A stretch of DNA of 64,000 nt from Catajapyx aquilonaris (taxonomy: Eukaryota), in contig KZ538198.1 in assembly GCA_000934665.2 (NCBI GenBank), forward strand, positions 1-64,000, in the 5' to 3' direction. Positions 9,001 to 64,000 of this stretch are shown in pieces; position 1 is the stretch's first letter; every line of letters begins with the position of its first letter. Under the pieces are notes generated by a model. It saw only the letters and a list, made by a program, of their open reading frames with translations. It searched no databases and was not told the DNA's origin. Both the position numbers and the translations under genes were made by a program.

Positions 9001-11012
9001 GAGATGAGAAGGAGGAAAATTTGTTTGTCGGGGGAACACTGTCCTATTACATTATTCCCTCTTTCTTACAAGATAGAAAGACGACGTAGGAGTGTCTCAT
9101 TCTATGGCGTGTCCTTAGATGTTGTGTTTGTTGTCATTCAGCTGACGTCGATTGAATGTAAACATGGTATTGCATCACCATGCATTCCACTGCCAAAACC
9201 TTTTGAAGCCGTATCATACCTGTTTTGAAAAGTAGCCAATCGCAATATGTCTCGAGCCTTGTTTATGGCATGCAGTCAAACTATCAGTACTGTATGAGCC
9301 TAACAATCAGTCGCGAAAAACTATTTCTGTCAGCACGCTCAGTAGAGTTGTTCCTCGTACTGACACGCTATTTATTCAGCAAGAAACGATTGGAAATTTA
9401 TCCGAGTTTATGTCGGGTCATTTTAAAGTCTATTCCTTTTCCGCCTACCACTTCCTATGTATATACCACACCCCTCCCCTTTTCCCCAAACTGAATTGGA
9501 CATGAATCATTTGTTGGCTTTAGGGAACACGGGAATATGGCGCTGCAGTAAGGACAAAGTACATCGGTCGATAGCGTTTACTGTCTGAAAGGTACCGAGT
9601 GTTCAGAAAATCGTTACTTGAATATTCAAGAGTGAAACCTTATTTTAAAATATGGGGTGCTGAGAGCCTGGAAAATGTTGCCGGATTTTCCCCAGAATAT
9701 TCCATGAATTTTGTAACACTGTATTGTTCCGAAGCTAGGTCGGTTCTCATGTTTGATATTATAAGCAGTGTGTATGCAAATTATTGCATATGCACTCAGG
9801 TGGCTGACCTCGTTCAATGTCACGTTCATTCAGTATTACATCCCATCTGATTTTCAAGGCATATTGAGCACCTGTCAGAACCCCCTTTATTCTCGTCGAT
9901 ATATCAGAGCCATAATGCGAATAGTTCCGAATGACTATGATCTATCGGCGAAGAAGGCATGCAATATATGTGCTGTGCCATCGGAAATGGGATGTTGAGG
10001 GCAAAAGCAGTTTGAGGGGGTACAAAAAAATAAAGGACCGTGAGTAGACTCGAGGTGAGATGTATGTAGGCCCATCCACCTGGCGGCCTTGAACTGGCCT
10101 TGAAGTGGTGGTTGACCAGGGAAAAGAGGGAAAGGGAGAATCACAAAGGAATTCTCTTCGCTCACTTTCTCGCCCGCGCTTCTTACGTGAGGACAAGGAC
10201 TGGAATCCAGTTCAAGGAATAGCCGGCCTACCAATCATACGGAACTTATTCCAATATATTATGACATATTTACCCAATTGGGTAGTGTGTATAGACAATT
10301 TCCATATGGTGGACAATGGCCAGTCAGTCAATAGCCATTGATGTCTATTGTGATGTGTGTTACATTATGTATAAGTCCTAAAATGGAGAGGCATGACACC
10401 ACATTTGCAAGGCATAGGTCCGATTTAATGCGTGTCTCAAACATGTATGACAGGCCTTGGTCGAAGGTTGCTTTGTGCGACATGGGCTGTAACCAAACCC
10501 CAGGCAAGGACACACTTGAGTGTATTTGCAGACAACGTGGTGTGGGTGTGAAATGTCCGGGTAAAAGTGCAAACAACCGTCCTTATGAAACACACCCAGG
10601 TGGTGTCAACGATGGATGAAAGCTTGGGGAGAAAATTTTTCAGGCTGCTCCGAAATATTACGTCGTACTCTGCAGTGCAGATCGACAACCTTTTTGGCTC
10701 CGTGCACGAGTGCCCCCGCCAACAGTCGGTCCCTTTTCTTGGAAACCTTGCCAACAATTGCCAACTTCTGATATGACCTTTTTTTTTCTCATGGGGCGGT
10801 AAATAAGCTCGAACTTTTCAGGAGGTAATTTATCCACCTGTTTTTCCTCTTACGAATTCATGTTCGTATTGTTGCAGGCATATTATACTGAAGAAAAATT
10901 GATTAGGTGTGGCTAATATTAATTCTATTAGTTTATTACTAAAAATGGCTCAATTTGGGTTTAAATTTATTTAGACAGTATACACATGACCTTGTTTAGT
11001 GCTGCCATCTTC

Positions 11013-11079
11013 CTAATGTGTCTTTTCTTATCTTTGCAGGTAAGAGTGTTCCAGTGCCTATATGATGCATGCGGTGAGT
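11013..11079 (+). other. Recursive splice site 1 (CAG|GTAAGA at 11039/11040) with a 34-nt cryptic RS-exon (11040-11073)
   Basis: Branch-like CTAAT 11013-11017, tract tcttttcttatctttgcag, immediately abutting GTAAGAG, and a downstream donor GCG|GTGAGT at 11074-11079. No AG between 11000 and 11037. Confidence 0.75.
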
Positions 11080-14000
11080 TCAGATCACATTTGGGGCAAT
11101 ATATTGGGATGTTTTGAACCCGCACATATTTGTGCGTGTTGTCGTCGCGGAGGGTTTGCATCCCCGTGAGAAGGTGGAATGAGGTTGGGATAGGAAGTGG
11201 ATTAGGATCTGATGGAGGCAATCAGTCGGAGGATGAGCTTGGAATTGGGTGTGGTATATACGGAAAGGAATAGAAGGTGGGTGGGTGTCTGGAATGGCTG
11301 AACTTGGGAAATGAGGATGGTGGCGAAGGATCGCTTTTTCAACCCCAAAAGTGGATGGGGGAGGAGAGTCTTCTAGCCGTAATTTGGGAGGAAACAGGGC
11401 GTCTTCACCTTTGATTGCGATATGAATCATCGAAGGACTTTCATTTCGAGGGGTGGGTGGGCAGACGGGTGGAATTCCTTTTAAATACTCGGTCCAAAGG
11501 GTCCGGGACCTATCTGTGCGTTCAAAGGAATTGAAGCGGAAACCCTGCCATCGATATTGCTCCACCGGAGGATTGAAGAAGCCAGACGCAATATTTTCTA
11601 CGTATAGGCCTATTCAATCGTGCTCACTGCATCACAGGGGCTTCCTATACAAAATAAGGCATGAAACATGAGGAAAGATATACGCTGGGGTTTTACTCTG
11701 CAGCAAGAAACTAGAGACACGCCCAATATAGAGAGGCCCTTTCACATTATTAGGATAATTCAATATAGCGAGCGTCACGAAACTTTCGGCGGTGGATTAC
11801 AGGTTCTTTGTTAAAAGTACTCCATGTGATTATAATGCACCCGGGAGTCATTCATTAGGGGAGGGTTCAATTATGAGGCGGAATTCGCAGCATTATGGGA
11901 ATCTTTGTACTGATTTAGTTTCTGTTATGGATTCATTTGTGTGGAGCAGTTTCTGTTAGTTTTGCCCAAATGGGAGGCGTAACAATATTTGGGCTTATCT
12001 CTAGGAATGAAATACGGTATACCAGAAGCGAGCTTAACAATGAAAATATTATTATTAAACTCTGTTTCGAATCTGGTATGAAATTATGATAAGCACTAAC
12101 TTGTTGAGAGCTTATTGGTATTATAATTTCAGGCCAACCGTGATGTAGCATAATGAATATGAGTATGTCAAGTTGTGGATACTATAAAAAGAGTATTGAT
12201 TCTGCTTGTTCAGTCACGTGTAACAAGAACAAAATTTTCGTCCCGTCGTGGAGACCTGGAAGACAATATCTCCCGCGGTCGGCTAATGGAAGTGTCAAAA
12301 CTCCAGAAGCATTCCGAGAAAACCCCCCTCAGGATTGCAATAGGATGACGTCACATGATATTTCTCATCTCTTCTACCTGTCTGAGCCGAGGATAAAAAT
12401 GAAGCTCCCCCACCGGGACTGTATTACATTCCATGCAGGTTATGCATGAGCTCACATTCAAGCCGCATGTGACGCGTCCGGGGGTCAAACTTCTGTAACG
12501 ACATTTTCTGTTAGGTGTCGAAAATTTTGCAGGGGGGTGCTCTCGAACGTGACTATTATTTACAGCTTCATTTCGCAGACCCCTATCCGCGAAATAAAAA
12601 ATTCCTCGGGCCTCGGGCCACTTTTATTGCCAATATTTTATGCTCCGTAAGAGATCCTCCACTTTTGAAAACCTAATAACTTCCATGCATTAAGTTCAAA
12701 TATTGAAGCAGATTTATGAAGCTTCAGCGCGGGGCTTTTAAAATTGGGTGTTTTGGTAGCGGAGCAATTTAAATCCAATGAACAAGTAAGGGCCTATCGC
12801 CGTTTGAAGGACGAAATCTAATTGTGCCTTAAATGTTCGCACTTGAGAGGGTTGAAGAATAATGGTTGAGACTCTTTTTATGTTGTTGGATGTTCTTGGG
12901 AGGATTCTGCTTCTTTTGGCGCTCAAGCTGCTGACTAGGAATTGATGCTTTCCTTACTACGGAAATAGAATAATGCGGGCCTCCTCGTAAATTCCGGGTG
13001 TAGCTACTTAAAAGCGGCGGCCATTTTACCCTCCTCCGGGCGAGAGATTTAATGCACGTCTACAATAATGAAAAAGAAAATCCTCGGGAAGTTAAGGAGT
13101 TCGCTTGTCGCGAGTTCTGCAATAATGGCGTCCCGTTTTTCGAACATAAATCAAAAAAAGGAGTGCATCAGCTGAAGTTACAAATTGGCCGTTTTGTCAT
13201 GGTCAGAAGCTGTTCTTCAAATGCCCGCAGACAAACGATTACTGCTGGAGCGGAGAAAGTTATGGACCGTTTATATTGTGCTGGATTGTTGGGTAATTTT
13301 TGCTGTCAATTTATTCGCGGTTTCGGTTAGCATGATTGAAATTTAGACTTTGCGCGGGGATTTAATATTTGGTGTGTACTTTTCGTCGTATTTGAGCGCC
13401 ACGGGAAATAATGCATATTAACTGAGTGCATTGTTTGGTAGTGTTTTGGTTAGTTATGCCTCGAACTAGATTTCATGCTGTTTTATACTAATGATAATAA
13501 TTGTATGTGTGCATGCTGATAAATATACGACTAATGAAAAGCATGATTGTTCGGACTGTGCGGTTCATTTAATTTGCGCAGTATTATATTGAATTTATGA
13601 TACTTGGATTTAAAGGCGTAATTAAATTTATCGACATTCCTAACGATAATAGTTAATGCTTACGTTAGTGCAACTTGTACAGAAATTTTGAGCCGAGCTG
13701 CTGAATGTTATATGATGTTTTATCATAGGCGTGTATAATATATATATGTGCAATACATGCACAACAGAAGCCTATACTGCTATACTAAAATATTCAATAT
13801 GGTTCCAATATGCTTAATTTGGCGTAAATCAGACTTTTAATCATGCAAATGTTCATTTGCGCGCTATGATGACATTGTTTACTATGTGTTTCCATTATAC
13901 CAACTCTGTCAACATAGGTGACTTCATAATATGAACAAACTTGCTTATGGCCGTCAGTGTTACACCTGCAGCATTTTAACTTTTAACCGAGTTTCTCTTT

Positions 14001-16088
14001 TCCATGACATTACATGTGTTACATGACTGTATACATGGCATACAGTAGGAACAAGGTAGCTTGTAATGAAAGAGCAACACTTGTTGTGTCACAGGTGAGA
14101 CTGTGCGCGCCTTTATGAGTTAACTCGAGTGGTCTGAAAAGTGGCGTATATACTGTACAGTACGTGGGCCACATGCTGACAAGAACATACACTGTAACAA
14201 GTACAGAGAAAGCAGCCCTTATGTAACGGTCTTTATCACAAGTCACATTACTGTAGGCTACTACGCCTTATCTACGATTTTTTGAGGCGGTTGTGTTGGG
14301 CACCTGTGTTGCTGGAATCCTTGCTGAATATCCTGGAGGCATTTGGAGAAATAAGCTGGTGGGGGGATCTTCTCATGTCACCCGCGAGGAAGACTTTAAA
14401 AAGTTTTCCGGATCTCATTACATCAAAATATGCACTTACTCTGGCAATGTGCCTGGCAACCACATCTGGGCTTAAGATGGCTCCCGTTCAGCCTCTTCTC
14501 CTAGGGAAGTGCTCATGTTTGTCTTTGTTACTTTTTAAATGAGTTTCTTTCTATCTCGCCCTCCAACCAGCAGGCATGCTGGTGCACAATATCTGGTGAT
14601 ATTAAACAGAAATCTGATGCAAGGTATTCTGAAAAAAAAAAAAGTGAAATTTCTTCTCCTCTGGTGTTCTTTCCGTTGGCACTCTTTTCATGTCCCTACC
14701 CCTCGTCACCTTCTTGATAACATTGTGCCCTGCGAACTCCTTTTTACTTTCATGTGGAAATTCCCGCAGAGAGGGGAGGTTTTTACTTTGTTAGGACCGG
14801 AGGAGCAACCAGTTTTCTGCAGTGCAAAAAGGAGGGTCTGCTGGGAAGGCAGAGATTTTGGGAGAGGAGTAAGGCCAATCAGGAAATTCCGTACAGTCTG
14901 AGCGCCTCTGTCTGGTGGTATTAACGGAGGATTAAAACCGAGGAAATGTGCACGGTATGTTCGGTGGAATTGCAAAGAAATCCTTTTGAGCAAAGGAATA
15001 AACAGACTTGTTTCGTTGAAACCATTATGAAATTAGCTCTTTGAAGAAACTTTTGCTGGAGGCGACTTAAAACGCCGTCTCAGCTCTATTTGTTTAATAA
15101 GAGTATACACACAGGGCTTAGGTAAGCAATTCAATATACCTTCAGGGAATATGGAAAAGTTGAAATAACAGGTAGCTGCAACAATATAGGCCTGTCTCAA
15201 GCAGAGTTGCACTGGGATTATTGACAGTGAATTCTAGGAACAGTGATGGGCAGAGGTCAGATTCCCCAGAGTGGCTATGGCGAAACTGGAGAGGTGCTTT
15301 TTGTTCGAGGGCTTTTGATCCACAGCATCAACGGTGTATGTACACCGAGAAGGCGTTGTGTAACAGGTCCCGTCTCTCGGCGGTCATTTTCTCCGAAAGT
15401 CGGTCTGATGCCGAAGTTTCATACAGATGCGGTGGATAGATGGGGGAAGGGAGATGCACCCTGTACCCAGTTGTGGCTCAGCGGGTGGTGTTAATTGGGG
15501 AAGATCAAAGGAAGGAATCTCTTTGGATGTCAAAGGCCTTAGCACATTTCCACACCATCATTTGCTGAGATTTAATCAACGTGCTTGGGTCCAGGACGCA
15601 ATTATATAGGCGAATTGTGCTAGCCCGAACCGCAGACTCTCAGCTATTGTTCCTGGTCGCAGTATGCAAAATATAGGTAACATGTACTTGACGTGGGTCG
15701 TAGTAAACATGACGTTGATACCTGGCAAATTTGAATCTTGCTTTGTAACCAGTTGATATCACGCTTTTTCATTATTGAGGTTTGTGGGTCTGCCACTGCG
15801 GCTTCCGTCCGGAACTTTAATTTACAATATCGGCACGGTATCCAGGGTTGTCAGATAATAACAACAAATGTGCAGATCGACCAATACATTCCGGATAAGG
15901 CCGGCGAGAATTTACTGCTCCGTGTAGGCTGAAAGTTTGCCAGGCTATAACCGTGAAAGTCGCATCCATATTTCTTTTGGCAGTATTCCTACAAAGAATG
16001 CACATTTCACGACCACCCAGCACCCTGAAGTGATTCCGATTCATTCGAACCCGTGTCTCTCTGCTTGAACATGATTAAAATTACATAC

Positions 16089-16343
16089 CTGTGAAAGGGT
16101 ACTTTGGCTCAGTTCCTGGCGCATAGTCTGCAGAGATGCATTTGAATTCACACGTAGTTCTCCCACCAGGAAAGTCCCATCTCTCACTATCTTCACCTCC
16201 CCAATACCTACTTTCCTCAGGGGGAATTCGGTGGCTCCTTCTACCTTTTTCTTCTTCTTCTTTTTTTTCTTTAACTCCCTATTTTGGCAAGGTTCCGCTG
16301 CTGACACGTTGCTATCAGCGAACGGAGGGGACACCATTTCCAT
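16089..16343 (-). CDS. Candidate antisense (nested) coding exon, unknown product
   Basis: 85 codons from ATG (MEMV...KKKKKKKKKVEGATEFPLRKVGIGEVKIVRDGTFLVGELRVNSNASLQTMRQELSQSTLSQ) end in phase 0 at CAG|gtatgt. An upstream acceptor, tcaaattttcag, precedes 16558. No recognisable homology. Confidence 0.25.
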
Positions 16344-19300
16344 TGGTTTCCGCCCAGAAATCGACTAGACCTGAGATCCATTCTGGCTCCAGGCAAGCTC
16401 CTGGGGTTCTTCTCCCAGGACCCAGCTCGCCCTGACGAATTATCTCCTCTGGAGGCCCATTCCTGGGGATCTACTCCTCTCCGGTGATCTGCCTTCATCG
16501 CGTTAATGAATAAAGAACAAGTCCCTGGAAGCTTCATGGGGACTTGTACAGTGGAGGGCTGAAAATTTGATGAACCAGGGCCCAGGACAGGCCTAACTTG
16601 CGAGTTTTTAGTGACGAGCTGATTAGAGTCGTGATAAGGATGCAGGCTCAGTCGCATTTACGTAAACAGGATTATATGCAAATTTATGGGCTCGGGTCAA
16701 GGTTAGGGAGATGCGCAGTAACATGCAGCTGTGGTGACATTGGCCCAGATATGCCTGAAGAAATATTTTCCTTCGTACGAGCAAATGAATAACTAACATA
16801 TTAATTTAAAATCTAATAAGTGTCCTGTATATAGGACATTAGGCACATATCTGAAAAGTAGTGTTGACATTTTCTGGTGAAGGCAGCAGTAGAGGATTTG
16901 CAATTTTAGCTCCTGCCTAACTTCATTTCCGATCTCACCGGATATAGTTTTAGTGACTGGCCATTGACAAATGGAATAATGAAGCAGCGATGGGAAGTGC
17001 TTAATTCAGTTCCATGTGAGTGATGAGTGATGAGACACATGCTGTCAGAGGTAATGGATGGGCAATACGGGTACGGGGATGGGATTTTGCCCCTGCTTGG
17101 TGATTGTTGGCTTTGATAGGATTAACAATGCTATATGGGTAACTGGATTACGGCGTTACGCTTTTGCATACGATAATAAATTGTTGTTTTTTACAATTTG
17201 GGGGGGGACACGGCACCGAGTTATAGTTTTAACGTCTGGTGGTAAACTGCGGCGCATACTAATGTTTCTATTGGCGGCACAAAAGAGAATGAAGTGACAC
17301 CGTTTTGGTGGCGAGTAGATCTGCATAACGGGCGGTGAAAAATAGAGTGGAAATTCGTGTAAACAATGGAGGAGGTTAGGCTTAGAAACGTGTACGGCGA
17401 AGAGGTAAAGAGGATGGCGGAATGCTGTTCTACCTCTCAGGACGTCCGTTAGTGTCAGTTTGACGGACACAAAAAGGCCGTTTGTCGAATTTTCGCGGAT
17501 ACTTTTGACATCGCCTACGGGTACAACTGCATTGTTGCAGAATATTTTTTACCCCATTTACAAAGCAAAAACCCGGCAGTAAACCCGCCCTAAAACTAGT
17601 CGCATATTTTCACGACAATTGAATGCCATTGTGTACACTCGTTAATTAGAGTCATTCTTGCGAAAAATCGGTTTCCGGCGATACCACCTCCGCAGTTCGA
17701 TGCACTCTTGCCCGGTTATAAACCCAGCGATTTCCAGCACGAAAGCAAGCCTTGCTTCGGTATCCTTTGCACAGGTAATTTGCTCGGAAGATTCTGTTTC
17801 GATAAGCTAAAATGGCAATTCCACGTCTGAATGTAGTGTATAGAACTTTGAATGATCTTGGGGGCTGTGTGGCCCTGGTCGATATGTTTTGTGCAGGTTG
17901 GCACCACGACCTCCCCCCTCCCCCATTTTCTTGAAAACAAAGCAGTCTACTACACAGGGCTTTAAGTCTATGAATAACTTACGAAGGCTGGCCACAAAAT
18001 GAATTTTTTAGGGAGCATTCTTCCATCATGCTTGAGTGGGAGTGCTGGTAAACAGCTTTGAGATGTCGCCTTGAGTGAATGCAGGGAGAGAGGAAAGAAT
18101 AGTGCGTACACTTGGGGGTTTCGTGTGAATAGTCTGAGAGTAACTTTCTCAAACTTTGTGAATGATCAAGTTGCGAAAGATTACTCGGGAGATTCCATCA
18201 GGCTGACTTTCGACTTACAACTTTGACTTGGAAGTTTGAGGAGGTAATTATGAACCTAGGTCCTAGGGTACTATTTCTTGTGCTTAAAGGTGTTATAATT
18301 GCGATATGCGATGGTTGACAGTTTTAAATTTTCAGTTTGTAAAAAAATTAATGTGGGGAAACCAGTAGTGGCACGTTTAGTGTCACTTGCGGGTCTATTA
18401 TGTAATTAATCGCCCAGTCAGTGTGACACAATACTGAAAGAGACACTCGGATTTGCTCAGTTTCATCGGAGGACTAGTTGACTGGCAGTTAATTGACGCT
18501 TTATAAATTCCGTCCCCACAATGTGATGACAGTATGTTTTTTTCTCCCGAATTTAACACATTTTTCGATGTCACATTTATTCGTCTCTCCCTCCTAGCTG
18601 GTGACGGCGACAGTCTTTTGTGTGTGGCGTAACACATCTGTCAATCAAAACCGTTTAATATTCAACATGGAGTAGCGTGGGTTGAACCAGCAACTCCATT
18701 TCCATACTTAACAGGAAGTAAGGCCTAACCATCCATCCAGCAGCTCCGTATTCAAAATGCAAATGCAACTCTGCGGAGCAGTCGGGCGCGGAGCAACACT
18801 GATAAGGCGAAAAAGGAGGAAGACCACACAGTAAATGAAAACTGAGGCGACTTGTGTGAGAGAGAGAGCCTTCATGTAATACATGTTGCACTTTGGCATA
18901 TGACACAGGGTTTCCTTTGATGCGTTTCACATCAAGCAGAATGCTTAATCAGCTGGAAGCTACTCTAATGGAACTCACCTGTGTGCGCCATCTTTGTATT
19001 ATTGCATACATATAGTGCGTGGAACTGTGGACTTAACCTGCACCAACTGAGGATAATGATATTGGGAAATGATGTCAGACGCTCCTTTCCCTCTCTCAAA
19101 CTTCAGCAGCTCTTCAGGAGAAGTTGCGCCAAGGCTTCAATATCCAATTTGGCGTGTAAGTACTTAAAGCGACAATGGAACTCACTATGGGTAGATAACG
19201 TCGTGGAAATTGAAAGGATCATTTTTGCTAAGAGGATTTCCGTGCTGCAGTGCTTGAGAGAAAACCTTTTCTGAAAGGTCTCGATGGCCAGGCTAAAGTG

Positions 19301-22300
19301 TGCTTTGGGAGCCCTCAAAGAGAATCATACACCTCGAGTGTACGCTGGATCCGGGATGTTCATCAAATTCTGGGTCCGGAACTTTGATTGCAATTTGGCG
19401 CCTGGCTTCCACCTCAAAAACCGCGACTATTTCTGGCCCTTTGGAGGAAACGAGGGTATTAGTGGGGGCCAGCGGTTGGGTCTAAAACTGTATGGAGAAC
19501 CTCATTCAACTTATCAAAAAGAGATGAAGTGCTAGTTTATCAGGCATTAAATGAGTATTATTTTGCGTCTGTTCGTAGCATGAACCGATGTAAAGGGCCG
19601 TTTTATTTACTGGAGGGAGCAGCCATGTTTGACAGAAAATCATTTTTTCGCTGGTGTTGTTTTCAACTTTTTTCCCCCCCGATATTGTGGTTTTATACGT
19701 ATTGCAACAATCCAGCCGATACTTTTATTGGAAACGATCGACCATAATTTGCGGAAACACCATCTGAGAGTTGGTACCAGGCACTGTTTGTGAAGAATTT
19801 CCAAGAATAGTACTACAATGTAGGATGAATTTAGATGGAGTGATGATATTGTGGTGGTTTTTCGTGGGTGTCGATTCTTTCACTGTTTCAGGGAAACTAT
19901 ATCGTGGGTTTCCTCGGGAATTGTTTTGGTGAGCCCGCAAAATCCGGGCCTGATGCCAGGACAAAGCTTCATGTTTGTAGCGGCTGATTTTTATTTTCCA
20001 GCAGTTTTAGAGTTCAGAATTTGTCGAACGTACAAACACTCAACAGCATTACGTGGAGATAAAATTGTGAGCTTCTGCCTGCTTTGGATCACAAATATGC
20101 AGCGATTAGATTTGCCGGCGGATTTCACCTTTCTCGATAAGTTTTTTTTGGCCCCCTTTTTTGCGGAACAAATCGAATATTTTGGCTACCACTCTGCCTT
20201 TGAGCGCCAAATGGTTATATAGAGTAATCGATTTGATGGCCTAAGCTGATGGGTTTCGCCTCTTTGAAAATAACATTTCTGTTCATTCATGCGAATTGTT
20301 ATGGTGCTTTATAACAAGTTGATTGGAAAATTTGCGGTAATTTTTGAAATTAATTCGTGCCCATATATACTAACAATTAATTTAGTTACATAAACATGAT
20401 TCAAACTGTTAAATAGTTTCTCCTATGCGCCCCATTACACTCGTTAAGTTATCAGGGTAATGGGTAAAATTTTGATGTAATTGTAATGCTGCAGTTCATG
20501 CTGCATGACTCTCATTACCATGGGGAACTGTTGGTTTGCCCAAATTAATTGTTATTACCGTACCAGATAAAGTTCTGTATTAATTCCATTTCTGTAGCAC
20601 AGTCATGCATTGTTCTCGAGGGACAATAGATTTGCACAGGTACATGTTCCCTACTTTTTTTTGTACCTCGTCTAGACGAATCGATTCTTGTCGGCAAGAT
20701 TCAGACAATTAGGATTGTTACAACGATCTTTCCGGACAACGGCCTTTGCTTTGACCAAATAAGTGTTTGACTTGGATTCTGAAAGGAGTGGTTAGGAGGT
20801 TTCTGACTGCTTCCTCTTTGATGATAGCAGCTTCAAGTTGTTTAAAAAAAAGAAAGACTCTGTGCCTATATGTAAGTGCAACTGAGATGTCGGCAAAATG
20901 AGACGGTCGATAACGAACATGACATAGTCGCAAGGGAACAAAGATCTTAATAAAAGTTAGAATGGTCTTTATGCTATACGCCAACGAGTTAAATTTAGCG
21001 AAAAATTAAGGGGGGCATCAAACGAGCTTGACTTCTCCACAGTCGCTACCTTAATGAAATACCGGGAGTCGGAAAGGAATTTTTATTCTCATTTTTTTGT
21101 GCCAGGCCACCATTGTGCTGTAGTTATTTCGGAATGAGACATTTATCTCCGGAGTTTCCTCCTTTCTAGTTTTTTCCGCCAATTTTTTATCTAGGAGAGA
21201 TGAGACTTAAGTGGATTAGTAAGCTCCGTGATTGGATTGTTCTGTAATTCTATTTCTTTGCCATCAACCCCCAGCACCACTGCTGACTTGGCCAAAAGAA
21301 GACCTTGGCCAGTAGTGGATCCAATTCATTAATCGTTTGCCGCAAAGTTTATAAAGTCGTTTTTTTGGTCGTACATTGGTATAGGGTGAGAAATTGCAAC
21401 GAAACGATATTCGACATATTTCTCATGAATATAAATCAGAAACATTGTGAAACAAGAGGTGACATGTGGTCACTGTTGATATAGGTTGGCCCAGCTTCTT
21501 CCCAGCACGTTCTTATCATATGTATCCAGGAAAGTGCAGGCAATATGCGATGCGGAACTATCTATAGTCGCCGATACCCCCTCCACACTTGCATATCGAT
21601 TTATTCAGCCCATTGGAAATCCTTATACACAGACAACCGAGGACCCCCAGCCATTCTTTGAAAATAATCGGATCAGGGGCATTTCCATTTTCCGGAAGGT
21701 GTTGGTTCTTGGGAGAAAACGACAACTGTGCGGCGTGGGTTGGTCGTCCAATCCTAAGGAAAAGTAGAGGGGGGAACGAGAAACTGGATTATGGTCGGTA
21801 ACGAAGGAAGGCCTGAATGCGAAAGCCCAGCTGGCGTTTCGCATTCATGGCCCAAGTTCCATTCAGGAGGCATTGTGTCATCCGAAGTCCTCGGTCGCCC
21901 CCCGCCCCCCAGCAAGGCTGATGGGGGAACATGCTCAAGTGATTTCCTACCCCCAAAGTCGAGACTCGAGACGCTATCAGCTCACGCCATCTTGCATTTC
22001 TAAGGAGGCAGGCATCCTTTTTTTTATAAGGGACCGACGCTGCTGCTTTCTAATTGTCGAGACAGCAAAAAGTTTTGTTCGCACTATGTCAAAAACCGCT
22101 ATCGCAATGGCGGCGCGACGGAATGGAAAAATAAATTGCGGAAAAAAAAACTTGAGAAATTATTTGTGGCGGTTCCGAACAAGAGGCAGTAAATTTTCAG
22201 ATATTGTTGGAGGAAGACAACAAAAGCTTTCCCATCCCGTGCCAAACAAGCAATTAGCGTATTCGTGCCTCTTTATAGATGGTGCAAATGGCAGTGGGAG

Positions 22301-24315
22301 TTCGGCCCAAATGCATTCGAGCTATTGTTCCATAGAAATCAGCGGCACCTGCGTTACCTCCTACCGTTGGTGAAAACGAGGAATGAGTATTGGAAGAGTG
22401 TATGTGCTAGCAAGCTCGAAGGGAGATAATGCATGAGTTTTTCAGGTTCGTGATAATTGGTGGGAAATTTCACCAACTACAAATGCTCTTGCCTGATTCT
22501 CTTCTGGCAGATCTTCATCAGGTCTGCTTGAGATACGTCGATAACGACTAATATGTATCGAGCTTAGAACATTGAGAAACTATTAATACCGGTATTGTAA
22601 CAGTAGTTCTACTTTAGGACGTTACCGCTGGGTTCGTGGTAATTTCCCTTTCAGCACCACATACAGTAATCAGCATTTCACATTTATGTACTGTACATTG
22701 ATAGGCCTACTGTAGCTTCTAGAACGGCGCAACCGTTGTATTCATGTTTTTGTGCATGGAATAATTCAGTGGAAGATGTGGTGTGTAGGGGAGTAATTCG
22801 ACGCCAATTCTACATAATCTGCTTAGATGTCCTCTGTAGCTTATATACTGCACTTCCTTGAGCGGGACGACAAAGAGCAACAACTACACTGCGAGACACT
22901 CGAGGGAATAATTATGCAGGATACACATACGAAATCTATCTGTAGATGAAGTACCAAGGCTGCAGTGTGGTGCTTATTATATAACAACTGTTATGTCTAC
23001 TCTACTAACAGTCTACTACACTATTTAGTGTGCAGATTTGTACTCTTTAAATTAGTAAATCAGAACTTCATAATAAGCGACTATAGCTGCAAAATATGTA
23101 TGGCAGTCATGATTTTAAAATTATGAGCGTGTGTTATGGATATTTAACAAGACTAGGCCAGAAAAGTCGTTGTGTTAAAGCTGATTTATTCACGTTCTTG
23201 CGGCTGAAAAACAAGTGATAAAGGAATACCAGGGAATACCACTGTGCACTGTTGCAGAATGACATGACCAACTCTTCATAATACATAATTATACGTTTTG
23301 CCTGTACCTAGACATTTCATTGCTTCCACTGCTTGTATATTATCGTACGTACTATACGTATAATCTACGTTACAGTCACTATATACGCCATCAAAAATCG
23401 AACCTCTGATGCAGCAAATGGGATGTGATTTTATTTTGTTACGAGAAACACAGGATGATTGTTTCTGACGGCAAGCCCCGAGTGCAGAAACAGGGTATAG
23501 GCAGCCCATTTTGCTCCTACAACCATCCTCTTCCTTTTTTTATCCACTTTTCCTTTTTTTCCGGAGCTCTCACCGGAGAAAATTGTTCCCCCCCGGCTGC
23601 CTTGCTTATGGACTTCCTCTTGTGGAAGGAGAATCACTTGGCTGTTGTGTCTCCATCGGGAGTTCCATTTAATTCCCCTGTTCTCTCCTTAATGGTGTTA
23701 TTTCAGATATTTAGAGTGGGCTGCACTGCATCAAAGCGTTTGTTATTCCACCTGACGACCTCCCTGTTTTTTCTTCTTCTTCTTCTGGTATTCCCAAACG
23801 TCCCATTATTTTCAAAAGCAAGAAACAAGATTTTTTGACTGCAATTGCGATTGTGTGTCGTGAATGGTTTTCTTCTCACCCCACGAAAATGACGTATGGC
23901 CATCGACGCTGCAATTTTCCTCTCCAGAGACCTCGAACCATTACGTCCCGGAGACTGCACCGGTGCCCCCATTTTCAATCGGGAGGAAACGTGGGGGCAT
24001 CGCCTGGACCACCATCATCTCTATCCAATCTGGGCCTCTTCCCACACCCTGCTTTGTTTTCTGGACTCGTGCCATCCTCACTCAATTGACCCCCAGGCTT
24101 TCATCCAGGGGAAGTAACGCTTGATTCCTGGGAGTAATTGAGAATTTTCGTACCTTTGAAGCATTTTATTTATTTAGCTTAAGATCAAGGAGCATTTTCT
24201 TTTATCCAGGATATAAGTGTGGTGAGGCTCCCCATGCAGTGTATTAGGTCTCGTGCAGTATTTAGTGCTCCCGTACAGGCTGTATTTCTTTTCCGTACCC
24301 CGGGTGCATCGTATA

Positions 24316-24382
24316 GCTTTCTTTATATGGCACTGTACAGGCCTGAAAATTTCAGGCCTGTACAGTGCCATATAAAGAAAGC
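24316..24382. repeat. Perfect 67-bp palindrome (33-bp arms, 1-nt spacer)
   Basis: gctttctttatatggcactgtacaggcctgaaa-a-tttcaggcctgtacagtgccatataaagaaagc. The arms are exact reverse complements. Confidence 0.97.
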
Positions 24383-24465
24383 GGGAGGTAAATAGTGGGC
24401 TGGGTACAGTACGACCGTGTCTGTTTTTGTAAGGGATCTGGATTTTAAGGCTCGCAGCACAGGTA

Positions 24466-24749
24466 CAGTGTTGGACATTAATCGCGTCATACTACTAGCG
24501 ACATTTTCCGATGCGGCAGACGTGCTAATCGAAGAGACAGAGTGCGAGCCGCGCGAGAAAGAAGTGGTAGCCCTTGGGGGACGTCACTGGCTGGGGACAA
24601 GCCCTTTTCTCCATTACCCCTCAGCCGGTGACGTCACTCAAGGCCTACCTCTTCTGATTCGCACTGCTCGCACTCTATCACTTCGATTTGCACGTCTGCC
24701 GCATCGAAATATGTCGCTAGCAGTATGACGCGATTAATGTCCAACACTG
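24466..24749. mobile_element. 284-bp palindromic MITE (Tc1/mariner-type non-autonomous DNA transposon)
   Basis: Perfect 28-bp terminal inverted repeats (CAGTGTTGGACATTAATCGCGTCATACT) continue as imperfect arms of about 130 bp. TA lies on both flanks (24464-24465 and 24750-24751), and the termini begin CAGT. Confidence 0.88.
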
Positions 24750-27330
24750 TACTGTATGATGGTATCATACGTGTATAGTAAGGAGCAAACCATCTGGCAC
24801 ATTGCAACGAAATTAATACTGGTTTTAATTGCATTTTGGGTAAACACAATTACTCCATCGACCTGCGCGAATGCACACCTATACGTACTGCAGGCAATAC
24901 GGTGCACTGTGTGCCTTTGCACATTTTATAAACCCATGAAGAAAACAAGGCAGGCGCACACGCCCGCACAGACGACATGGCTGGACGCACAAACACACAG
25001 TAGCATTGTATTTGGGCTCAAATCGCCCGGATTCCTACCCTTTCACCGTCCCATTGACAAACCGGGTAATAATCAGTCCCGATTACGCCACAGCCATCCC
25101 TTTGTCGCCAACTCGCAACAAAAGGGGAGCAGCATGCAAGAGGCCCTTCACGGCCTGGAGTTTGTCACCACACCAGCCTGATGTGTCACGAGGCTTGGCA
25201 ATGCGACGGGGGATGACTTATCTGCATTCCAGTTTCCCGCCAAAATCTCAACCTTTTGATTCGTGGTCCTCAGTCGGACTATTTTAAGCCTTCTGCTGGA
25301 TAAAGGAAGCCAAGTTGGATTTAATATCTCAGACTTCATCCACTTCGAGGAATGCATTGTGCCTGCAATTATGGAGCTCTCTGCAGATGAGATATAGAAA
25401 TAAGTCTAATTATCTCCTGGGATTTTATTGATTAATTCCTTCTCTCCTAATTAGCAATGCCTGTACTCTTGAAGAAGCCTGGTAAAAGGGAATGATTAAC
25501 GCTAGACATCTTAGCCTGATTGCGGCTTTTATTGCATTAGGTCCTTCAATTTCGTTTAATTTCTTTTCCGCCTTAGATAACTGTCTGAATTCTTAACTTT
25601 TGGATGGAATGTGGAAGTTTTGGAGGGGGAGACAGCGTAGACGGGAATATTTATTAGATTATGCCTGGCATTCATGTCAGCCGCAATCAGGGCAAGAGAT
25701 TCTCAGGAATTCCAGATTTCTGGGGAAGATCACTTTTCTAGAGAGGCTCAAAAGTCATATTCGCTTAGTTGGAGCGTAATGTTCGCAGACTGCGGTCAAG
25801 TATGTATAACTTCGGCATTAACTGTGTTGTGATGAAAGCTGGCGTATGCACATAGCCTGGTAATTACATGAACAAATATTTTGCAAAGGGGTGAAGCCCA
25901 GTACTTATACAAACCGGAAGAGTAAATTATACGCTGTCGGTCAACATCAGAAGCGAAGTTCTGTACAGGCACGTATACAGTATCTATTGCCAGTTAAAAA
26001 TTCGCCAGGTATTGACTTACGGAATGCAACGTGCATAAATTTTGTACGTTATACGAATTTAAGATTGCGTGCAACCCGCATTGCACCAAAAATCGTGGTC
26101 TGGATGTCGGAAGTGAGCAGGTCTCACCAGAAAGCCACGGGGAAAACTCTGCAAACATGTGAAACGGACGTATTGGACAGGTGACAACTTGTTAGACGCC
26201 AGAGAAGTGCGGTGTCCAAGTGACAGCAGGAGGAAACTTGCCTGTTCCGACGTTAACTCGGTGTCCCATCATGCATATAGTGTAAACACAATGCAAGCTC
26301 CATTCTTAACCTCTTAAGTTGTACAACTTCATAGTTGAGAAGAAAAATTGTGTCATTGCGAGGTAATACACTCGTAATGAACATTTTGTTCAAGATGTTG
26401 AAGAAGAGAGTACTCAAATGCCAAGGCCGTAAACCTGTGTAATTATGCGTATATAGCTTCTTAGGGAACCAGACACTGCGGAGATCTACCGGAAGACTTC
26501 TTGAGTACGTCGTAAATTCTGGGCAGTGTTTGTTACTTTTCTCTAGTCTGCCTAGTTGGAAACTTTCACGCAGATAAGGCCATTGAAACCCCAACTTGAA
26601 GAGCCCGAAGTTTAATCCACCTCCCCCTTACTCCTCCAACTTAACTTGGGTTTCTAACTTTGTCGATACAAAGTGTATCAAGTACAGGACCGAGATTCAG
26701 TATCGGTGGCAGCAGGGAAATGCGACTTCATCTCATAGTCAGTGTAGGTTTGGTCTACTGCCTCTTAAGAGAATTGGGTTTTCCACGGGGAGAAGGTAGG
26801 ATTACCAGTTAAATTCACAATAGGGTTGAAGTTGGAGTCATTCAAAGTGTGGTTACTGCAGCTATTCAGACGAGTTCAGGTTTTGGACTGACCGGCTCTG
26901 TTATTTAAATTAATTCCTTATTTGGGACACCTCTATTGTAATAAGGGCTGCATTTTCAGCAGTTTGTTTGCTTTTTATGGCCTCTACTTATTATCAGCTT
27001 ATCCCTCCTAACAAATTTCACATTCTTGGTTATAAATATGAAAATGTTATCGCATTGTCCACAAACGATAGTTCATTGACCTAATCCACACATCACCTCA
27101 ACGTAAACAAACACTCGAGTGGTAAACCAATCGAAGGCAAAAATTGTGTCCACCCCCTCTAAAATGTACGGTGCCTATTCCGCCAAGAAACACAATCTCA
27201 AGGCTTGTTAGCACAAGAAACTAGGTTTTAGGTGAACCTAGATAACACAGTTTGCTCACCTGATAGTCTGCTGATACAGGTCTGGGGGTAATACACTTCC
27301 AAAGTTTACTGGGTCAGTAATATTTCACAA

Positions 27331-27414
27331 ATGGAGGCTGTCGAGTGGACACGGTTGTTCGGATGTCCCTTGGACATTTCGGTCAGAACCAGATGGAAAC
27401 CATTCAATGCGAAG
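27331..27414 (+). CDS. Candidate alternative first coding exon of the NOS1AP-like gene
   Basis: ATG at 27331 is open for 28 codons (MEAVEWTRLFGCPLDISVRTRWKPFNAK) to AAG|gtaagg. It is phase 0 and ends in F-x-A-K like the canonical first exon. The rest shows no similarity. Confidence 0.22.
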
Positions 27415-28486
27415 GTAAGGTACTGTCCAAGTTTTTCGCTGCTGGAAGGGTGAGGCTTAGTAGGTTATCGTACCATCTATTTCGGGTTCCGGAGGCGCCA
27501 ACATCGTTTAGTTTGATGCCGCGGATTGCGGCGGTGGCAGGTTTGGGAAAAAAGAATAGACGTGGAGGAATTTGGCACGCGAAACCACCTCACCCTTCTT
27601 TAAGATTACTCGCGGAAAAAAAAGAAGTAAAATGCTCCACGCTTTAATTTCCCGAGGCCCTCCTTGAGCCAGTTGGCAAAACTTCTTGTGCTCTGCTGGA
27701 CTCCCTTGTCACACCCTTGGCAAAAAAAAAGAGTGTCATTTCGAACCGCTTGATTTGTGAGAAGTCTTATGCCGGCCTGAAGTGTGATATTACCGGACTT
27801 GGTTTTATCTGGGAATGAAAAAGAGTTGGGGATTACCAGTCTCTTGCAGGTCAGAGAAGATGGGTTGGACCCAACAAAAAGAGGGGCACTGGATGGATTG
27901 CATACGGGAGAAACTTACGGTGTGCTCGTAAATTACATGTATAAAGCCCCGGCACCCGGCGGGAATTACTGCCGGCCGAGTTGGTTTCATGTTAAACACG
28001 TTGAAGGATTACGGACAGAGCGATATGAAAATTGCAACCGGTTTGTTTCCAAGCGCTGGGCTGATGCTAACTGTGGGTTGGATCATAATAATGGGGATTC
28101 TAGTGCTGCAGATCTAGGTCGGATATAAGTCTGCATTATGGTGGGACGGAGGGAACTGTGATGAACTGGGGATGAGTAATTTTGTCACTTTTTTGATTAG
28201 TATATATGGAGGGTTATTTTGTTTGGACTGATTAACCGACTTCCCATGTATTGTGTGGGAAACGGAACAAATCTGCAATAATACAGGAAGGAAGGGTTGT
28301 GGACTGAGTTTATGGCATCATACACGTGTTAGACTGGCCTATATTTTCTGGTCATTAGGGCTTCATTAGTTCTTGGTTTCCTATCAAAAATAATGGGCTG
28401 AGTTAGATGAAGCATATATGATTCACCGTTATAATGAATAGCTTTATAGTGGTCAGTTTTGATATTGCGAGACTATTTCACATGTA

Positions 28487-28560
28487 TTAACTATGCAATT
28501 TTCCCTTTGTTTTACAGGTAAGAGGCGCTTAACTACTACAGTATACTCCTGTGGGTGAGT
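28487..28560 (+). other. Recursive splice site 2 (CAG|GTAAGA at 28517/28518) with a 37-nt cryptic RS-exon (28518-28554)
   Basis: Branch-like TTAAC 28487-28491, tract ttttccctttgttttacag, abutting GTAAGAG, and a downstream donor TGG|GTGAGT at 28555-28560. AG-free zone 28472-28515. Confidence 0.75.
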
Positions 28561-45800: not shown

Positions 45801-48800
45801 GCGGGTGTGTAAATTAAGTTGAAGCTTCATATATTATTTGGCAAACGCGATTTGTGTGCAGAATGCGGTGGATTTGCTGCCATGGGGATAAATCCCAGGG
45901 ATTGACGTAGCGTGGTTAATTCGGCCGAACAAAAAACGATGAAAGATTGAGATGCAGGGACAATAATGTGATTTCAGGCTGCTTTCAGTTGGTGATTAAC
46001 CAGAAGTTTGAGCCTAATTACAGCCTTTTTGGTCTTTCAACAGGTGGTCCCTGCATTGCGTGTACATGCGGGTATTTAGAGTGAGTGCAAGGCTCCAAAT
46101 TCGTCTGAGAAATGTAACATGCGACAATCCGTGTGGGTGTGACATCTAAAAAACATCTTCTATTGTCGCTTGTCCTCGTTTCCTAAGTCGGCAAATTCCG
46201 CCGTCTCTGTGAGAGCTTTCTTAAAGCTGCAACTTTTTTTTTCGCAAATGCCACTTCGAGCCACAAATTTTCTTTGTGACACCTTCGTCTCTCCACTGAA
46301 GTTGTCAATCAAATCAGCTTGGTTGCGACATAAGAATGTACTGTATAACACGGAGTTTCCTATAAGATGCACTTGAGAAGAGAGTGGTGCGAAAAATGAA
46401 ATTTTGGCTTCAAAGTGCCCCAAAATTAGAGGAGCGATACAGAATCAGTGCCTGGGCCGCTTCCTTCTAGAGAGGCTTAATACACTGCGGGTAATTCTGT
46501 TTTAATGTTTGCAGCGGCGAAACTGGCTCAGCGAAATGGCTGCCGCCTTTTAAAATACTCACGTAAGTGCATTTTTGTTCTGATAGTGCCTCGTTTCCAT
46601 GGGGACTAATTAAGCGAGAGAAAAGGGGCTGACTTTGCATAAGGGGTAATTATTCTTATGCACCGATGCAATCTGGTTCATTGCACAGCTTTGTAATGAA
46701 TTTTTAAAAGCATTGTAAGCACATTTGTTGCTGGTGCAAGTTTCCGTTTTAAAATGCATATTGTCTATCACAGAATCATGTGTTGGCGGTGTGGGAAAGA
46801 AGACACCAAGAGTCAGATAGTACATTTAAATGGAGGATTTAGGCACATCCAGGAGCCTAGTAATTATTTGAAATGTGATCAATGACGGGTTTACGCGATG
46901 TCAAATAGGATGTTTTAGTAAATGGATACCCCTGACATTAACTACAATTTGTACGTGGCATGCGGGAGCAGCAAATAATGAAAATGACTGTTGAGAGTTA
47001 CATCCGTTTTTATCCCCATTTTTTGGTTCAAAAATTAAAATGTAACTGCAAATAAACAAGGCAAATAGACCATGTCATCGGGTGTAATTTATGCTGTTTG
47101 CATCTGTTTGGAGTCAGTCGTATAGGGGTTCATTTACTTTACAGACTGTCGCAACATGCTGGAACATTTGAGTTTGCAGATAGAGTCAGGTCGATCCTGA
47201 TGTACTATTAAATAATAGAATGCTGATTGGCCTTAAGTCAAAATTTGAATTGTAGGTGCGACTTAAAACAGATGTTACAATGACGCAGGTCAAGTCGTTT
47301 GGCCCAACGTTTTCCTATTTTGGCGGCAAGAGCACAAAAGGAAAGCGTAGAAATCTGTATTGATCAACCGTTTCCCCCCGGCAAATCAATTCTCCTCTTT
47401 GTTCGCAACATCAACCGACGACAAAGCATTTGTACATAGTTAGCAGGGCACTCCAACCCTTATAAAAGCCACTCGGGGAGTGCTTTCAACCTGGACTGGT
47501 TGAGATACAGCGCAGTATTGCTGTAGTTGTACGCCCGTTTGTAGCATTTTGTAATATGCCTGATGGCCTAGTAACCGCGATTCAAAAAGCTAGATGCTAC
47601 CCATTTAGCTGGTACGCAATGTTGGTGTCGGCAGTAATGCTGTATAGGGTTTGGAAAAAGTAGGACATTCGGTAAGGATCTTACGAAACTCATCTGGCTG
47701 GCTGGATTTGGTGGATTCTGCGTCAAATCCGGAAAACTTAAGTGTGGTTGCTACCATCCAGTTTCTTATCTACACTTTGATTGCTTTTTTCGATCTCTCC
47801 GAGGTGCTGGGATCATGCACTGTTGAGTAAGCACTAGATGGTTCGTGCGGGATTGGGAACTTGGCAGCCGAGCCGGTTTTTATACCCAGTTGGCTGTGGA
47901 CTTACTTTTTGGACACCTTGTATATCACGTGGGAGATCTGTATAATCCTCCAAAAATGGCAAAATTGCAACAAGTTTCGTGGGTCTGCAGGAAAGGCATA
48001 GATTAAAACCACAGACTTTCACTTAACCACAAATGCACTTTTCTTGCACTATAGTGCATTTCATAGGCTTTACTCCGTTGAAATTGACGGAGCAGTAAAG
48101 AAGCACTAAAACGTCGTCGACGCCGGTTTTCAGCGAAGGAAAAAAAAGAGTAACTCCATGATGTGAATTGACGTGGAGTCACGCCTAGAGCCTGTTGTCG
48201 ACTATTTCTTTGTGGGTGAGAATTCATGCATTATTCTGGCATAACATCTTTTGTGCTGGAGGCTCACTCTGCTGGAAACTCCTCTCTCTCACTCTCCTTT
48301 TCTGGGAGCGTGCTTATAGTCAGTTGGCGTGGATAAATTGCTCGTTGAATGGACGTCGCCTAGCGTCGCAGGCCGTCGCCGCCATTTGTCACTCGATCAC
48401 GTCGCTTCATTTTTCAATATTATATGAAGCAGGACATACTTGCGAAACTTTCGGAGAGCTGCATTGTCCCGGTACAACGGAAGGTAACGGGCATTGTCTG
48501 CCGACTGCATAATGCAGGGCACGTGACTTGTTGATGCGGACGGGGGATTAATAGAATTACCCTGCAACGTCCTCCATTATGTGCAGTCGGTAAATCGCAC
48601 ACATCCACTAAGTAATTTGTCGCTCTGGGATTGAATGGCTGTCAATGACGGCGCGAAGTGACGGTAATTTTTCGCGTGTCGGTGCGTCACCCTTGTTCGG
48701 ACATGTTCACTTTTGGCTGCTCTTTAATCTCCGATGAACAAAGCGCGAAAATGGCGGAGAACTCATTGTGTCAAAGCCAGCTGCGGGTAAGTGACATCCC

Positions 48801-62929: not shown

Positions 62930-63001
62930 TACATTGGAACTTTGGACGTCCCCCGGCCTTCCAGCCGAGTGGAGATAGTGGCTGCCATGAGAAGGATCAG
63001 G
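62930..63001 (+). CDS. NOS1AP: Internal coding exon of a NOS1AP/CAPON-like PTB-domain adaptor (equivalent to vertebrate exon 2)
   Basis: Acceptor ttgctttgttttccttccgcag (AG 62928-62929) and donor AGG|gtaagt (63002-63007). The 72 nt translate to [24 protein letters not shown], nearly identical to the recalled NOS1AP motif [24 protein letters not shown]. Phase 0 at both ends. Confidence 0.95.
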
Positions 63002-64000
63002 GTAAGTAGGCGTCCCAGCAGTTCTGGCCTCTGCTTTGATATCAGTTCGGAATTATATTGTGCTGCTTCCTTTTGCTGTGCCAGGAGAATAGCGAAGCGG
63101 TGAAATTTTTGCCAGGAATATTGCGGCTCAAAGCTGCAAATTCAACAGAGGAAGAAAGTCTGATATAGATGTTCCCATTATATGCGAGTTTTTTTTGAAA
63201 ATTTGTGCTTTGAGGATTGAATTCCAAGGCTCTCTTGTGAGTGAAAGGAATGGGCGGAAAAGGGAGAAAAGAGTGTGTTCGCTGGTGCAGAAAAAGTGGG
63301 ATTAATTGTTCGATTTAATCCCATTTGAAGGACAGGCGCGCCCAGCTTCTTCGATGGTGAGACGGAAATGGAGGAGTGTTGGGAAGAAATGTTGTCAGCC
63401 TGTGTTTCCGTCAGTTGTGAAGTAATGGGTATCAAAGTTGTGGCCGCGTTCTTGTGGAATGGACTGTCTGTTTGAAAGAGAGAAAGTGCGAGGCTTTTCC
63501 GTTATGTAATCTTAAACCAAAGCATGATTATCAATTGTTGTAATAATATGGTAGCCTGTTGATTCTGAACGCATTCTGGAGCCTGAAATTAGTGGTGTTT
63601 ATTTATGAATGGAGAAAACGTTGGTCGCCGGTGCTGGGCTGCCTAATGAAAGTAAAGGCACAGTGTATAAGCCTATAGGAGAGAACTTATCGGGGGCCAG
63701 ATCGGTAGAGCCTGTCCCGGAAATCCTTTTAGATGTCACTGTAACCCTGGCCATCGATCCTGTACTTTTTTTTTACTGGTCCAGAATACATTTTCCTTAT
63801 TTGCAAATCACATTGGAGTAGGCGAGTTCATCGTGACCCGACTTCAGAATCATTTTTATGGAAGGGAGGAACTTTTAAGCGTATCCGACCTTCAGCCTTT
63901 TGGGACTTGTATCATCCCCAAAGCAGACGGCTGGGGATTACCTTCGCGAGTAATCTGATTGTCACACATAAGGACGGTTTTGTAGGCACATCACGGTTTC
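63002..64000 (+). other. Start of the next intron of the NOS1AP-like gene
   Basis: GTAAGT donor at 63002. The expected next exon (YEFKAK..KKKKV) is not seen before the window ends. Confidence 0.85.

Follow-up and report, generated by a model that had tools for sequence, protein, structure and literature searches.

In a 64,000-nucleotide (nt) stretch of Catajapyx aquilonaris DNA (GenBank assembly GCA_000934665.2, contig KZ538198.1, positions 1 to 64,000 of the forward strand, hereafter the window), we found two matching cassettes with the anatomy of recursive splice sites inside a very long intron of a NOS1AP (CAPON)-like gene. As read from the sequence, both lie on the plus strand, with their junctions at 11039/11040 (site 1) and 28517/28518 (site 2), 17,478 nt apart; here and in the motifs below, a slash marks the splice junction. 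At both sites an acceptor is fused directly to a donor, the host intron is very long, and a further donor downstream would close a short out-of-frame exon. We lean towards interpreting the cassettes as genuine recursive splice sites (ratchet points) with discarded recursive-splicing exons (RS-exons), which would divide NOS1AP intron 1 into segments of roughly 17.5 kilobases (kb). This interpretation is offered as a well-formed, testable prediction from motifs and not as a discovery.

Two cassettes share a four-part architecture

The initial annotation of the window had described two sites about 17.5 kb apart with one four-part architecture, namely a branch motif 23-27 nt upstream, an AG-free pyrimidine tract, CAG fused to GTAAGAG, and a GTGAGT donor 34 or 37 nt downstream. 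All of these coordinates and motifs were confirmed by sequence reading (Table 1). The branch motif of site 1 has the core CTAAT, and the 10-mer CAGGTAAGAG is identical at the two sites. The lengths of the two putative RS-exons, 34 and 37 nt, both leave a remainder of 1 on division by 3.

Table 1 Features of the two cassettes, the weaker third cassette and the downstream NOS1AP exon in the window
Feature	Position	Strand	Description
Site 1 branch-point-like motif CCTAAT	11012..11017	+	Branch A 11016; yTnAy match; 23 nt before last intron base
Site 1 pyrimidine tract and CAG acceptor	11021..11039	+	16/20 pyrimidines; AG-free for 38 nt, back to 10999
Putative cryptic RS-exon 1	11040..11073	+	34 nt; starts with regenerated donor GTAAGAG (11040-11046); frame shift by 1
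GTGAGT donor closing putative RS-exon 1	11074..11079	+	34 nt past site 1 junction
Site 2 branch-point-like motif TTAAC	28487..28491	+	Branch A 28490; 27 nt before last intron base
Site 2 pyrimidine tract and CAG acceptor	28499..28517	+	15/20 pyrimidines; AG-free for 44 nt
Putative cryptic RS-exon 2	28518..28554	+	37 nt; starts with GTAAGAG (28518-28524); frame-shifting; in-frame stop in phase 0
GTGAGT donor closing putative RS-exon 2	28555..28560	+	37 nt past site 2 junction
Weaker third cassette	46044..46086	+	CAACAG/GTGGTC at 46043/46044; 37-nt stretch; GTGAGT 46081-46086
NOS1AP/CAPON PTB-domain exon	62930..63001	+	24 codons in phase 0; strong acceptor, CAG up to 62929; followed by donor AGG/GTAAGT, GTAAGT at 63002-63007

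Internal repeats are very scarce in the window. Self-BLAST of the 64 kb returned only 8 non-self matches, none of which joined site 1 to site 2, and alignment of the two sites with each other showed the core splice motifs in common and nothing else. The flanks are unrelated, as the annotation had held, and the likeness of the motifs therefore does not come from common descent. A segmental duplication or a shared transposon was considered as the origin of both sites and was ruled out by these two results.

If the sites act as ratchet points, U2AF and U2 would assemble on the branch point, the tract and CAG, U1 would bind GTGAGT 34 or 37 nt downstream, and the short cryptic RS-exon would be defined jointly. 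Splicing would first join 11040 to the upstream exon, located beyond the window, and this junction would set the exon end before GTAAGAG so that a 5' splice site is recreated. In competition with GTGAGT, the recreated site would be spliced to 28518, and the cycle would be repeated toward exon 2 at 62930. In this way, at least 62.9 kb of intron would be taken out in pieces that include ~17.5 kb and ~34.4 kb. The two cryptic exons of 34 and 37 nt would be thrown away; either of them, if kept, would shift the reading frame. In the recursive-splicing reading of the initial annotation, the part that stands is backed by plus-strand specificity, improbability by chance, non-repeat origin and gene context, while every splicing step, including removal in at least three steps, is something that we infer.

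The host gene is NOS1AP-like

A protein search with the 74-amino-acid stop-to-stop frame around the exon at 62930-63001 returned 183 proteins at E ≤ 0.01, and the named proteins among them were 'carboxyl-terminal PDZ ligand of neuronal nitric oxide synthase' (CAPON/NOS1AP) with PF00640. The exon peptide was identical at 24/24 positions in 51 of the 120 proteins listed. Thirty of the listed proteins were viewed by taxon; 13 of these 30 had 24/24 identity, and every one was from an invertebrate. The identical peptide was present in sea urchin, sea cucumber, brittle star, acorn worm and amphioxus, and further in brachiopod, scallop, snail, octopod, annelid, nemertean and barnacle. In the 12 vertebrate proteins compared, identity was 22 or 23 of 24. 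A PDB sequence search with the 24-amino-acid exon peptide gave 0 matches.

In full-length orthologues, the exon peptide (YIGTL...) comes directly after a first exon ending in ...FQAK. This coding first exon (MPS...FQAK) was not found in the window by tblastn with the N-terminal 140 residues of ten orthologues, for which the exon at 62930-63001 was the sole match. It follows that the coding first exon lies upstream of the window, and that a phase-0 intron of at least 62.9 kb holds both sites. The placement of the sites in a giant NOS1AP-like intron thus agrees with the protein search, which identifies the downstream exon as the NOS1AP/CAPON PTB exon. The annotation had also raised the case of a first exon downstream of the sites, and the conserved coding first exon was nowhere in the window.

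Base composition was examined over the same stretch. On the plus strand, G exceeds C and T exceeds A in almost every 2-kb bin, and the cumulative GC skew climbs steadily (totals for the window: A 17,052, T 18,885, G 15,009 and C 13,054; G+C 43.8%). Transcription-associated strand asymmetry is expected on a long transcribed sense strand, and the skew fits sense-strand transcription over the whole window. The observed/expected CpG ratio of the window is 0.81, a value unlike that of vertebrate introns.

The cassettes might belong to some other overlapping sense transcript, either a non-coding RNA or an alternative 5' untranslated region with an internal promoter, and we regard this as very unlikely. 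Internal first exons are conceivable, since two orthologue models (P0005 and P0033) join alternative N-termini to the YIGTL exon. Yet no promoter or further exon was found, six long open reading frames (ORFs) of the window matched 0 Pfam families, and Rfam gave 0 matches on the whole window. Such a transcript would also leave the fusion of acceptor and donor unexplained.

The cassettes are strand-specific and exceed chance expectation

The heptamer AGGTAAG occurs 4 times on the plus strand and 3 times on the minus strand of the window, and a pyrimidine tract precedes it at sites 1 and 2 only. We defined a composite motif as YAG/GTRAG with at least 12/20 pyrimidines and no AG. It was found 2 times on the plus strand vs 0 on the minus strand, which matches the earlier remark that no minus-strand equivalent was seen. 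Chance was modelled by 1000 dinucleotide-preserving shuffles of the window. The loose composite had a mean of 0.54 per strand in the shuffles, 10% of which contained at least 2. With at least 15/20 pyrimidines the mean was 0.068, and at least 2 occurred in 0.2%; with a GTRAGT donor at +20 to +60 in addition, the mean was 0.010, and at least 2 occurred in 0/1000. Because the motif was partly defined after sighting, the smallest of these figures are somewhat optimistic. The literature definition of the core Yn-CAG/GTAAG motif predates this analysis. The two-cassette pattern is clearly non-random and strand-specific: within the 64-kb window, where the annotation's counter-case of equal frequency on the antisense strand was checked, the cassettes are confined to the sense strand and lie far above the shuffle expectation.

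The plus strand contains 104 acceptor-like sites and 23 GTRAGT per 64 kb. By rough arithmetic, ~0.2 of the 104 acceptor-like sites are expected to run into GTRAG, and the chance per site of a GTRAGT donor in a 41-nt span is ~0.015. Acceptor-plus-donor look-alikes in the window number 5 on the plus strand and 2 on the minus strand at a threshold of at least 14 pyrimidines, and 9 and 3 at a threshold of at least 13.

The same motif was sought on both strands of 56 metagenome loci with a NOS1AP exon (238,970 nt in total). Only the exon aligns with the window, in 16/56 loci, at 74-82% DNA identity. No ratchet-like motif with a downstream donor was found in these loci, none of which extends more than 10 kb upstream, so the absence of cassettes there is uninformative. 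The loose motif matched 3 times, never with a downstream donor, and 2 of the matches (sense strand) read as the ordinary donor of a downstream coding exon. These lie in two unrelated loci (L001 at 4529 and L009 at 10956) and read ...CATCATCC(C/A)AT(C/T)TACAG, followed directly by GT(A/G)AG. In our own reading, the match appears to encode the conserved HHPIYR end of the downstream NOS1AP exon, and it shows that a pyrimidine-rich coding end is able to mimic the loose motif.

We think it unlikely that the cassettes are chance pseudo-sites, ignored by the spliceosome or used as noise only. Two full four-part sites were absent from all 1000 shuffles, and none was present on the antisense strand or, with a downstream donor, in the other loci. 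The 10-mer is identical at both sites despite the unrelated flanks, and the spacing looks near-regular. A chance origin nevertheless gains some weight from the use of a single 64-kb window, in which the pattern was picked after reading, from the frequency of the loosest motif in the shuffles, from the other look-alikes in the window, and from human motif-defined sites, most of which lack read support (PMC6110456, in excerpt).

A generic cryptic-exon look-alike, with no fused donor, was observed at 19084-19161 on the plus strand. It combines 17/20 pyrimidines with a CAG acceptor; its stretch begins at 19107, and GTAAGT follows 49 nt later.

Spacing and a weaker third cassette

Site 2 and exon 2 are 34,412 nt apart, 1.97 times the interval between sites 1 and 2. 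Within this segment lies a weaker third cassette (46014-46086, including its upstream elements), with a CTAAT branch motif, 14/20 pyrimidines and only 18 AG-free nt. Its acceptor is 17,526 nt past site 2 and 16,886 nt before exon 2, or 320 nt off the midpoint of the segment, and the intervals with this cassette counted (17,478, 17,526 and 16,886 nt) are nearly even. By our own arithmetic, the chance of a look-alike falling so near the midpoint is ~2-6%, depending on the threshold. Membership of the third cassette among the ratchet points is doubtful and suggestive only, given that GTGGTC would be a poor regenerated donor and that look-alikes are not rare; it may be a variant ratchet point or one that has decayed.

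When the three cryptic stretches (11040-11073, 28518-28554 and 46044-46080; 34 + 37 + 37 = 108 nt) were joined in order, no stop was found in phase 0, which is probably due to chance. A coding role of these stretches was rejected: each singly shifts the frame, the second and third have stops when taken alone, and orthologues join FQAK to YIGTL.

Comparison with known recursive splicing systems

The literature is represented here by excerpts of the papers cited. Fly ratchet points consist of an acceptor/donor fusion and a short (~50 nt) cryptic exon with a downstream donor, generally out of frame; as the ratchet donor prevails in the donor competition, the RS-exon is normally skipped (PMC8605326). 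Recursive sites occur in most fly introns >40 kb, near the midpoint or, when two or three are present, at ~33% or 25% (PMC6110457). The longest introns are cut into equal subsections, and host introns are mostly >40 kb in fly and mostly >51 kb in mouse (10.1101/2024.12.11.627982). Drosophila examples are Ubx, kuz and Bx (Hatton 1998, Burnette 2005, Duff 2015, Joseph 2018 and Pai 2018, as cited in PMC8605326 and PMC6110457). The cassettes of the window resemble these ratchet points in the tract with CAG fused to GTAAG, the short putative out-of-frame exon with its own donor, the intron well over 40 kb and possibly the similar-sized segments. They come from a non-fly host.

In vertebrates, recursive splice sites that carry RS-exons were reportedly described for long neuronal genes by Sibley 2015 and Blazquez 2018. 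As at vertebrate sites (Zhang 2018, PMC6110456), AG/GTAAG lies here in a neuronally expressed gene, within its longest and typically first intron, a downstream donor would define the RS-exon, and inclusion would break the frame. In human, the reconstituted donor is stronger than that of the RS-exon in 67% of cases (PMC6110456). Unlike in vertebrate systems, the CpG ratio of the window and the exon peptide point away from a vertebrate host.

Several points weigh against genuine ratchet points. The putative RS-exons are 34 to 37 nt long vs ~50 nt in Drosophila. In further contrast to Drosophila, the regenerated donor has A in place of T at position +6, and the RS-exon donors are not weaker. The RS-exon donors G/GTGAGT fit the consensus at 6/6 intron positions and the regenerated GTAAGA misses +6, so that the ratchet donor lacks the clear advantage in strength preferred by the donor-competition model, and the cryptic exons might be included instead. 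The regenerated donor was judged on GTAAGA alone, the upstream exon end lying outside the window. A non-coding alternative first exon may be located downstream of sites 1 and 2. For human, 36,870 putative motif-defined sites compare with 342 that have junction reads, according to excerpts of PMC6110456.

The strength of the GTGAGT donors, which are no poorer matches to the consensus than the regenerated GTAAGA, also bears on an alternative in which the cassettes are short poison or cassette exons. Some mRNAs would then contain the 34- and 37-nt exons, with a shifted frame and reduced NOS1AP output, and a ratchet role would be absent or secondary. We judge this improbable. The cassettes do resemble poison exons in being short, frame-shifting and intronic with good splice sites, RS-exon 2 contains an in-frame stop, and there are precedents for expressed RS-exons as well as for poison exons (PMC8605326). 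However, a poison or plain cassette exon needs no donor consensus at its start, yet both cassettes have one, the identical GTAAGAG, and the orthologous proteins examined join ...FQAK straight to YIGTL. The alternative overlaps with the ratchet-point reading, as RS-exons can be partly included.

NOS1AP and the distribution of recursive splicing

In the literature searched, no report of validated recursive splicing turned up for any NOS1AP orthologue, and no paper pairs recursive splicing with NOS1AP or with CG42673, which we take to be the fly orthologue. The initial annotation was likewise aware of no such description. Human NOS1AP appeared only in a list of putative sites. It occurs 12 times in S1 Table of PMC6110456, within the pool of 36,870 sites defined by motif and conservation. 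The rows shown refer to the intron chr1:162040072-162124194 (84 kb) and list AGGT sites with acceptor strength ≥5 and PhastCons ≥0.5 (PMC6110456). These putative sites lie in a gene of the same family as the one in the window. NOS1AP was absent from five other supplementary files examined of PMC6110456 and from three of PMC10156609, and CG42673, Capon and NOS1AP were absent from five examined of PMC6110457.

Recursive splicing has been documented in flies, mouse and human, with weaker evidence in lungfish (10.1101/2024.12.11.627982). Excerpted text also gives weaker evidence of it for locust. Where the literature on echinoderms, on 'mollus-' and on amphioxus overlapped with recursive splicing, the taxon term occurred once and 'recursive splicing' 1-3 times per paper.

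It is conceivable, though we advance it tentatively, that exon-defined ratchet points with equal-segment placement operate in the first NOS1AP intron of a non-vertebrate animal. If so, the full mechanism of flies and vertebrates, including discarded RS-exons and ~17.5-kb subdivision, would be ancestral to bilaterians and not a trait of two model lineages. A validated case in a further animal lineage would show the mechanism, with its regular placement, to be old and general, and would bring a neuronal adaptor gene, NOS1AP, into the set of recursively spliced genes. If real, the cassettes would represent a known mechanism in a gene, and probably a lineage, without an earlier report, which would probably be useful and unsurprising to a splicing specialist.

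Other features of the window

Two self-complementary stretches, 24463-24752 (~290 nt, 81%) and 24316-24382 (67 nt, 98.5%), form palindromic inverted repeats within 24316-24752 and are possibly a small foldback element. A long T-run lies on the plus strand at ~16150-16250, where the ORF translations show F runs on one strand and K runs on the other.

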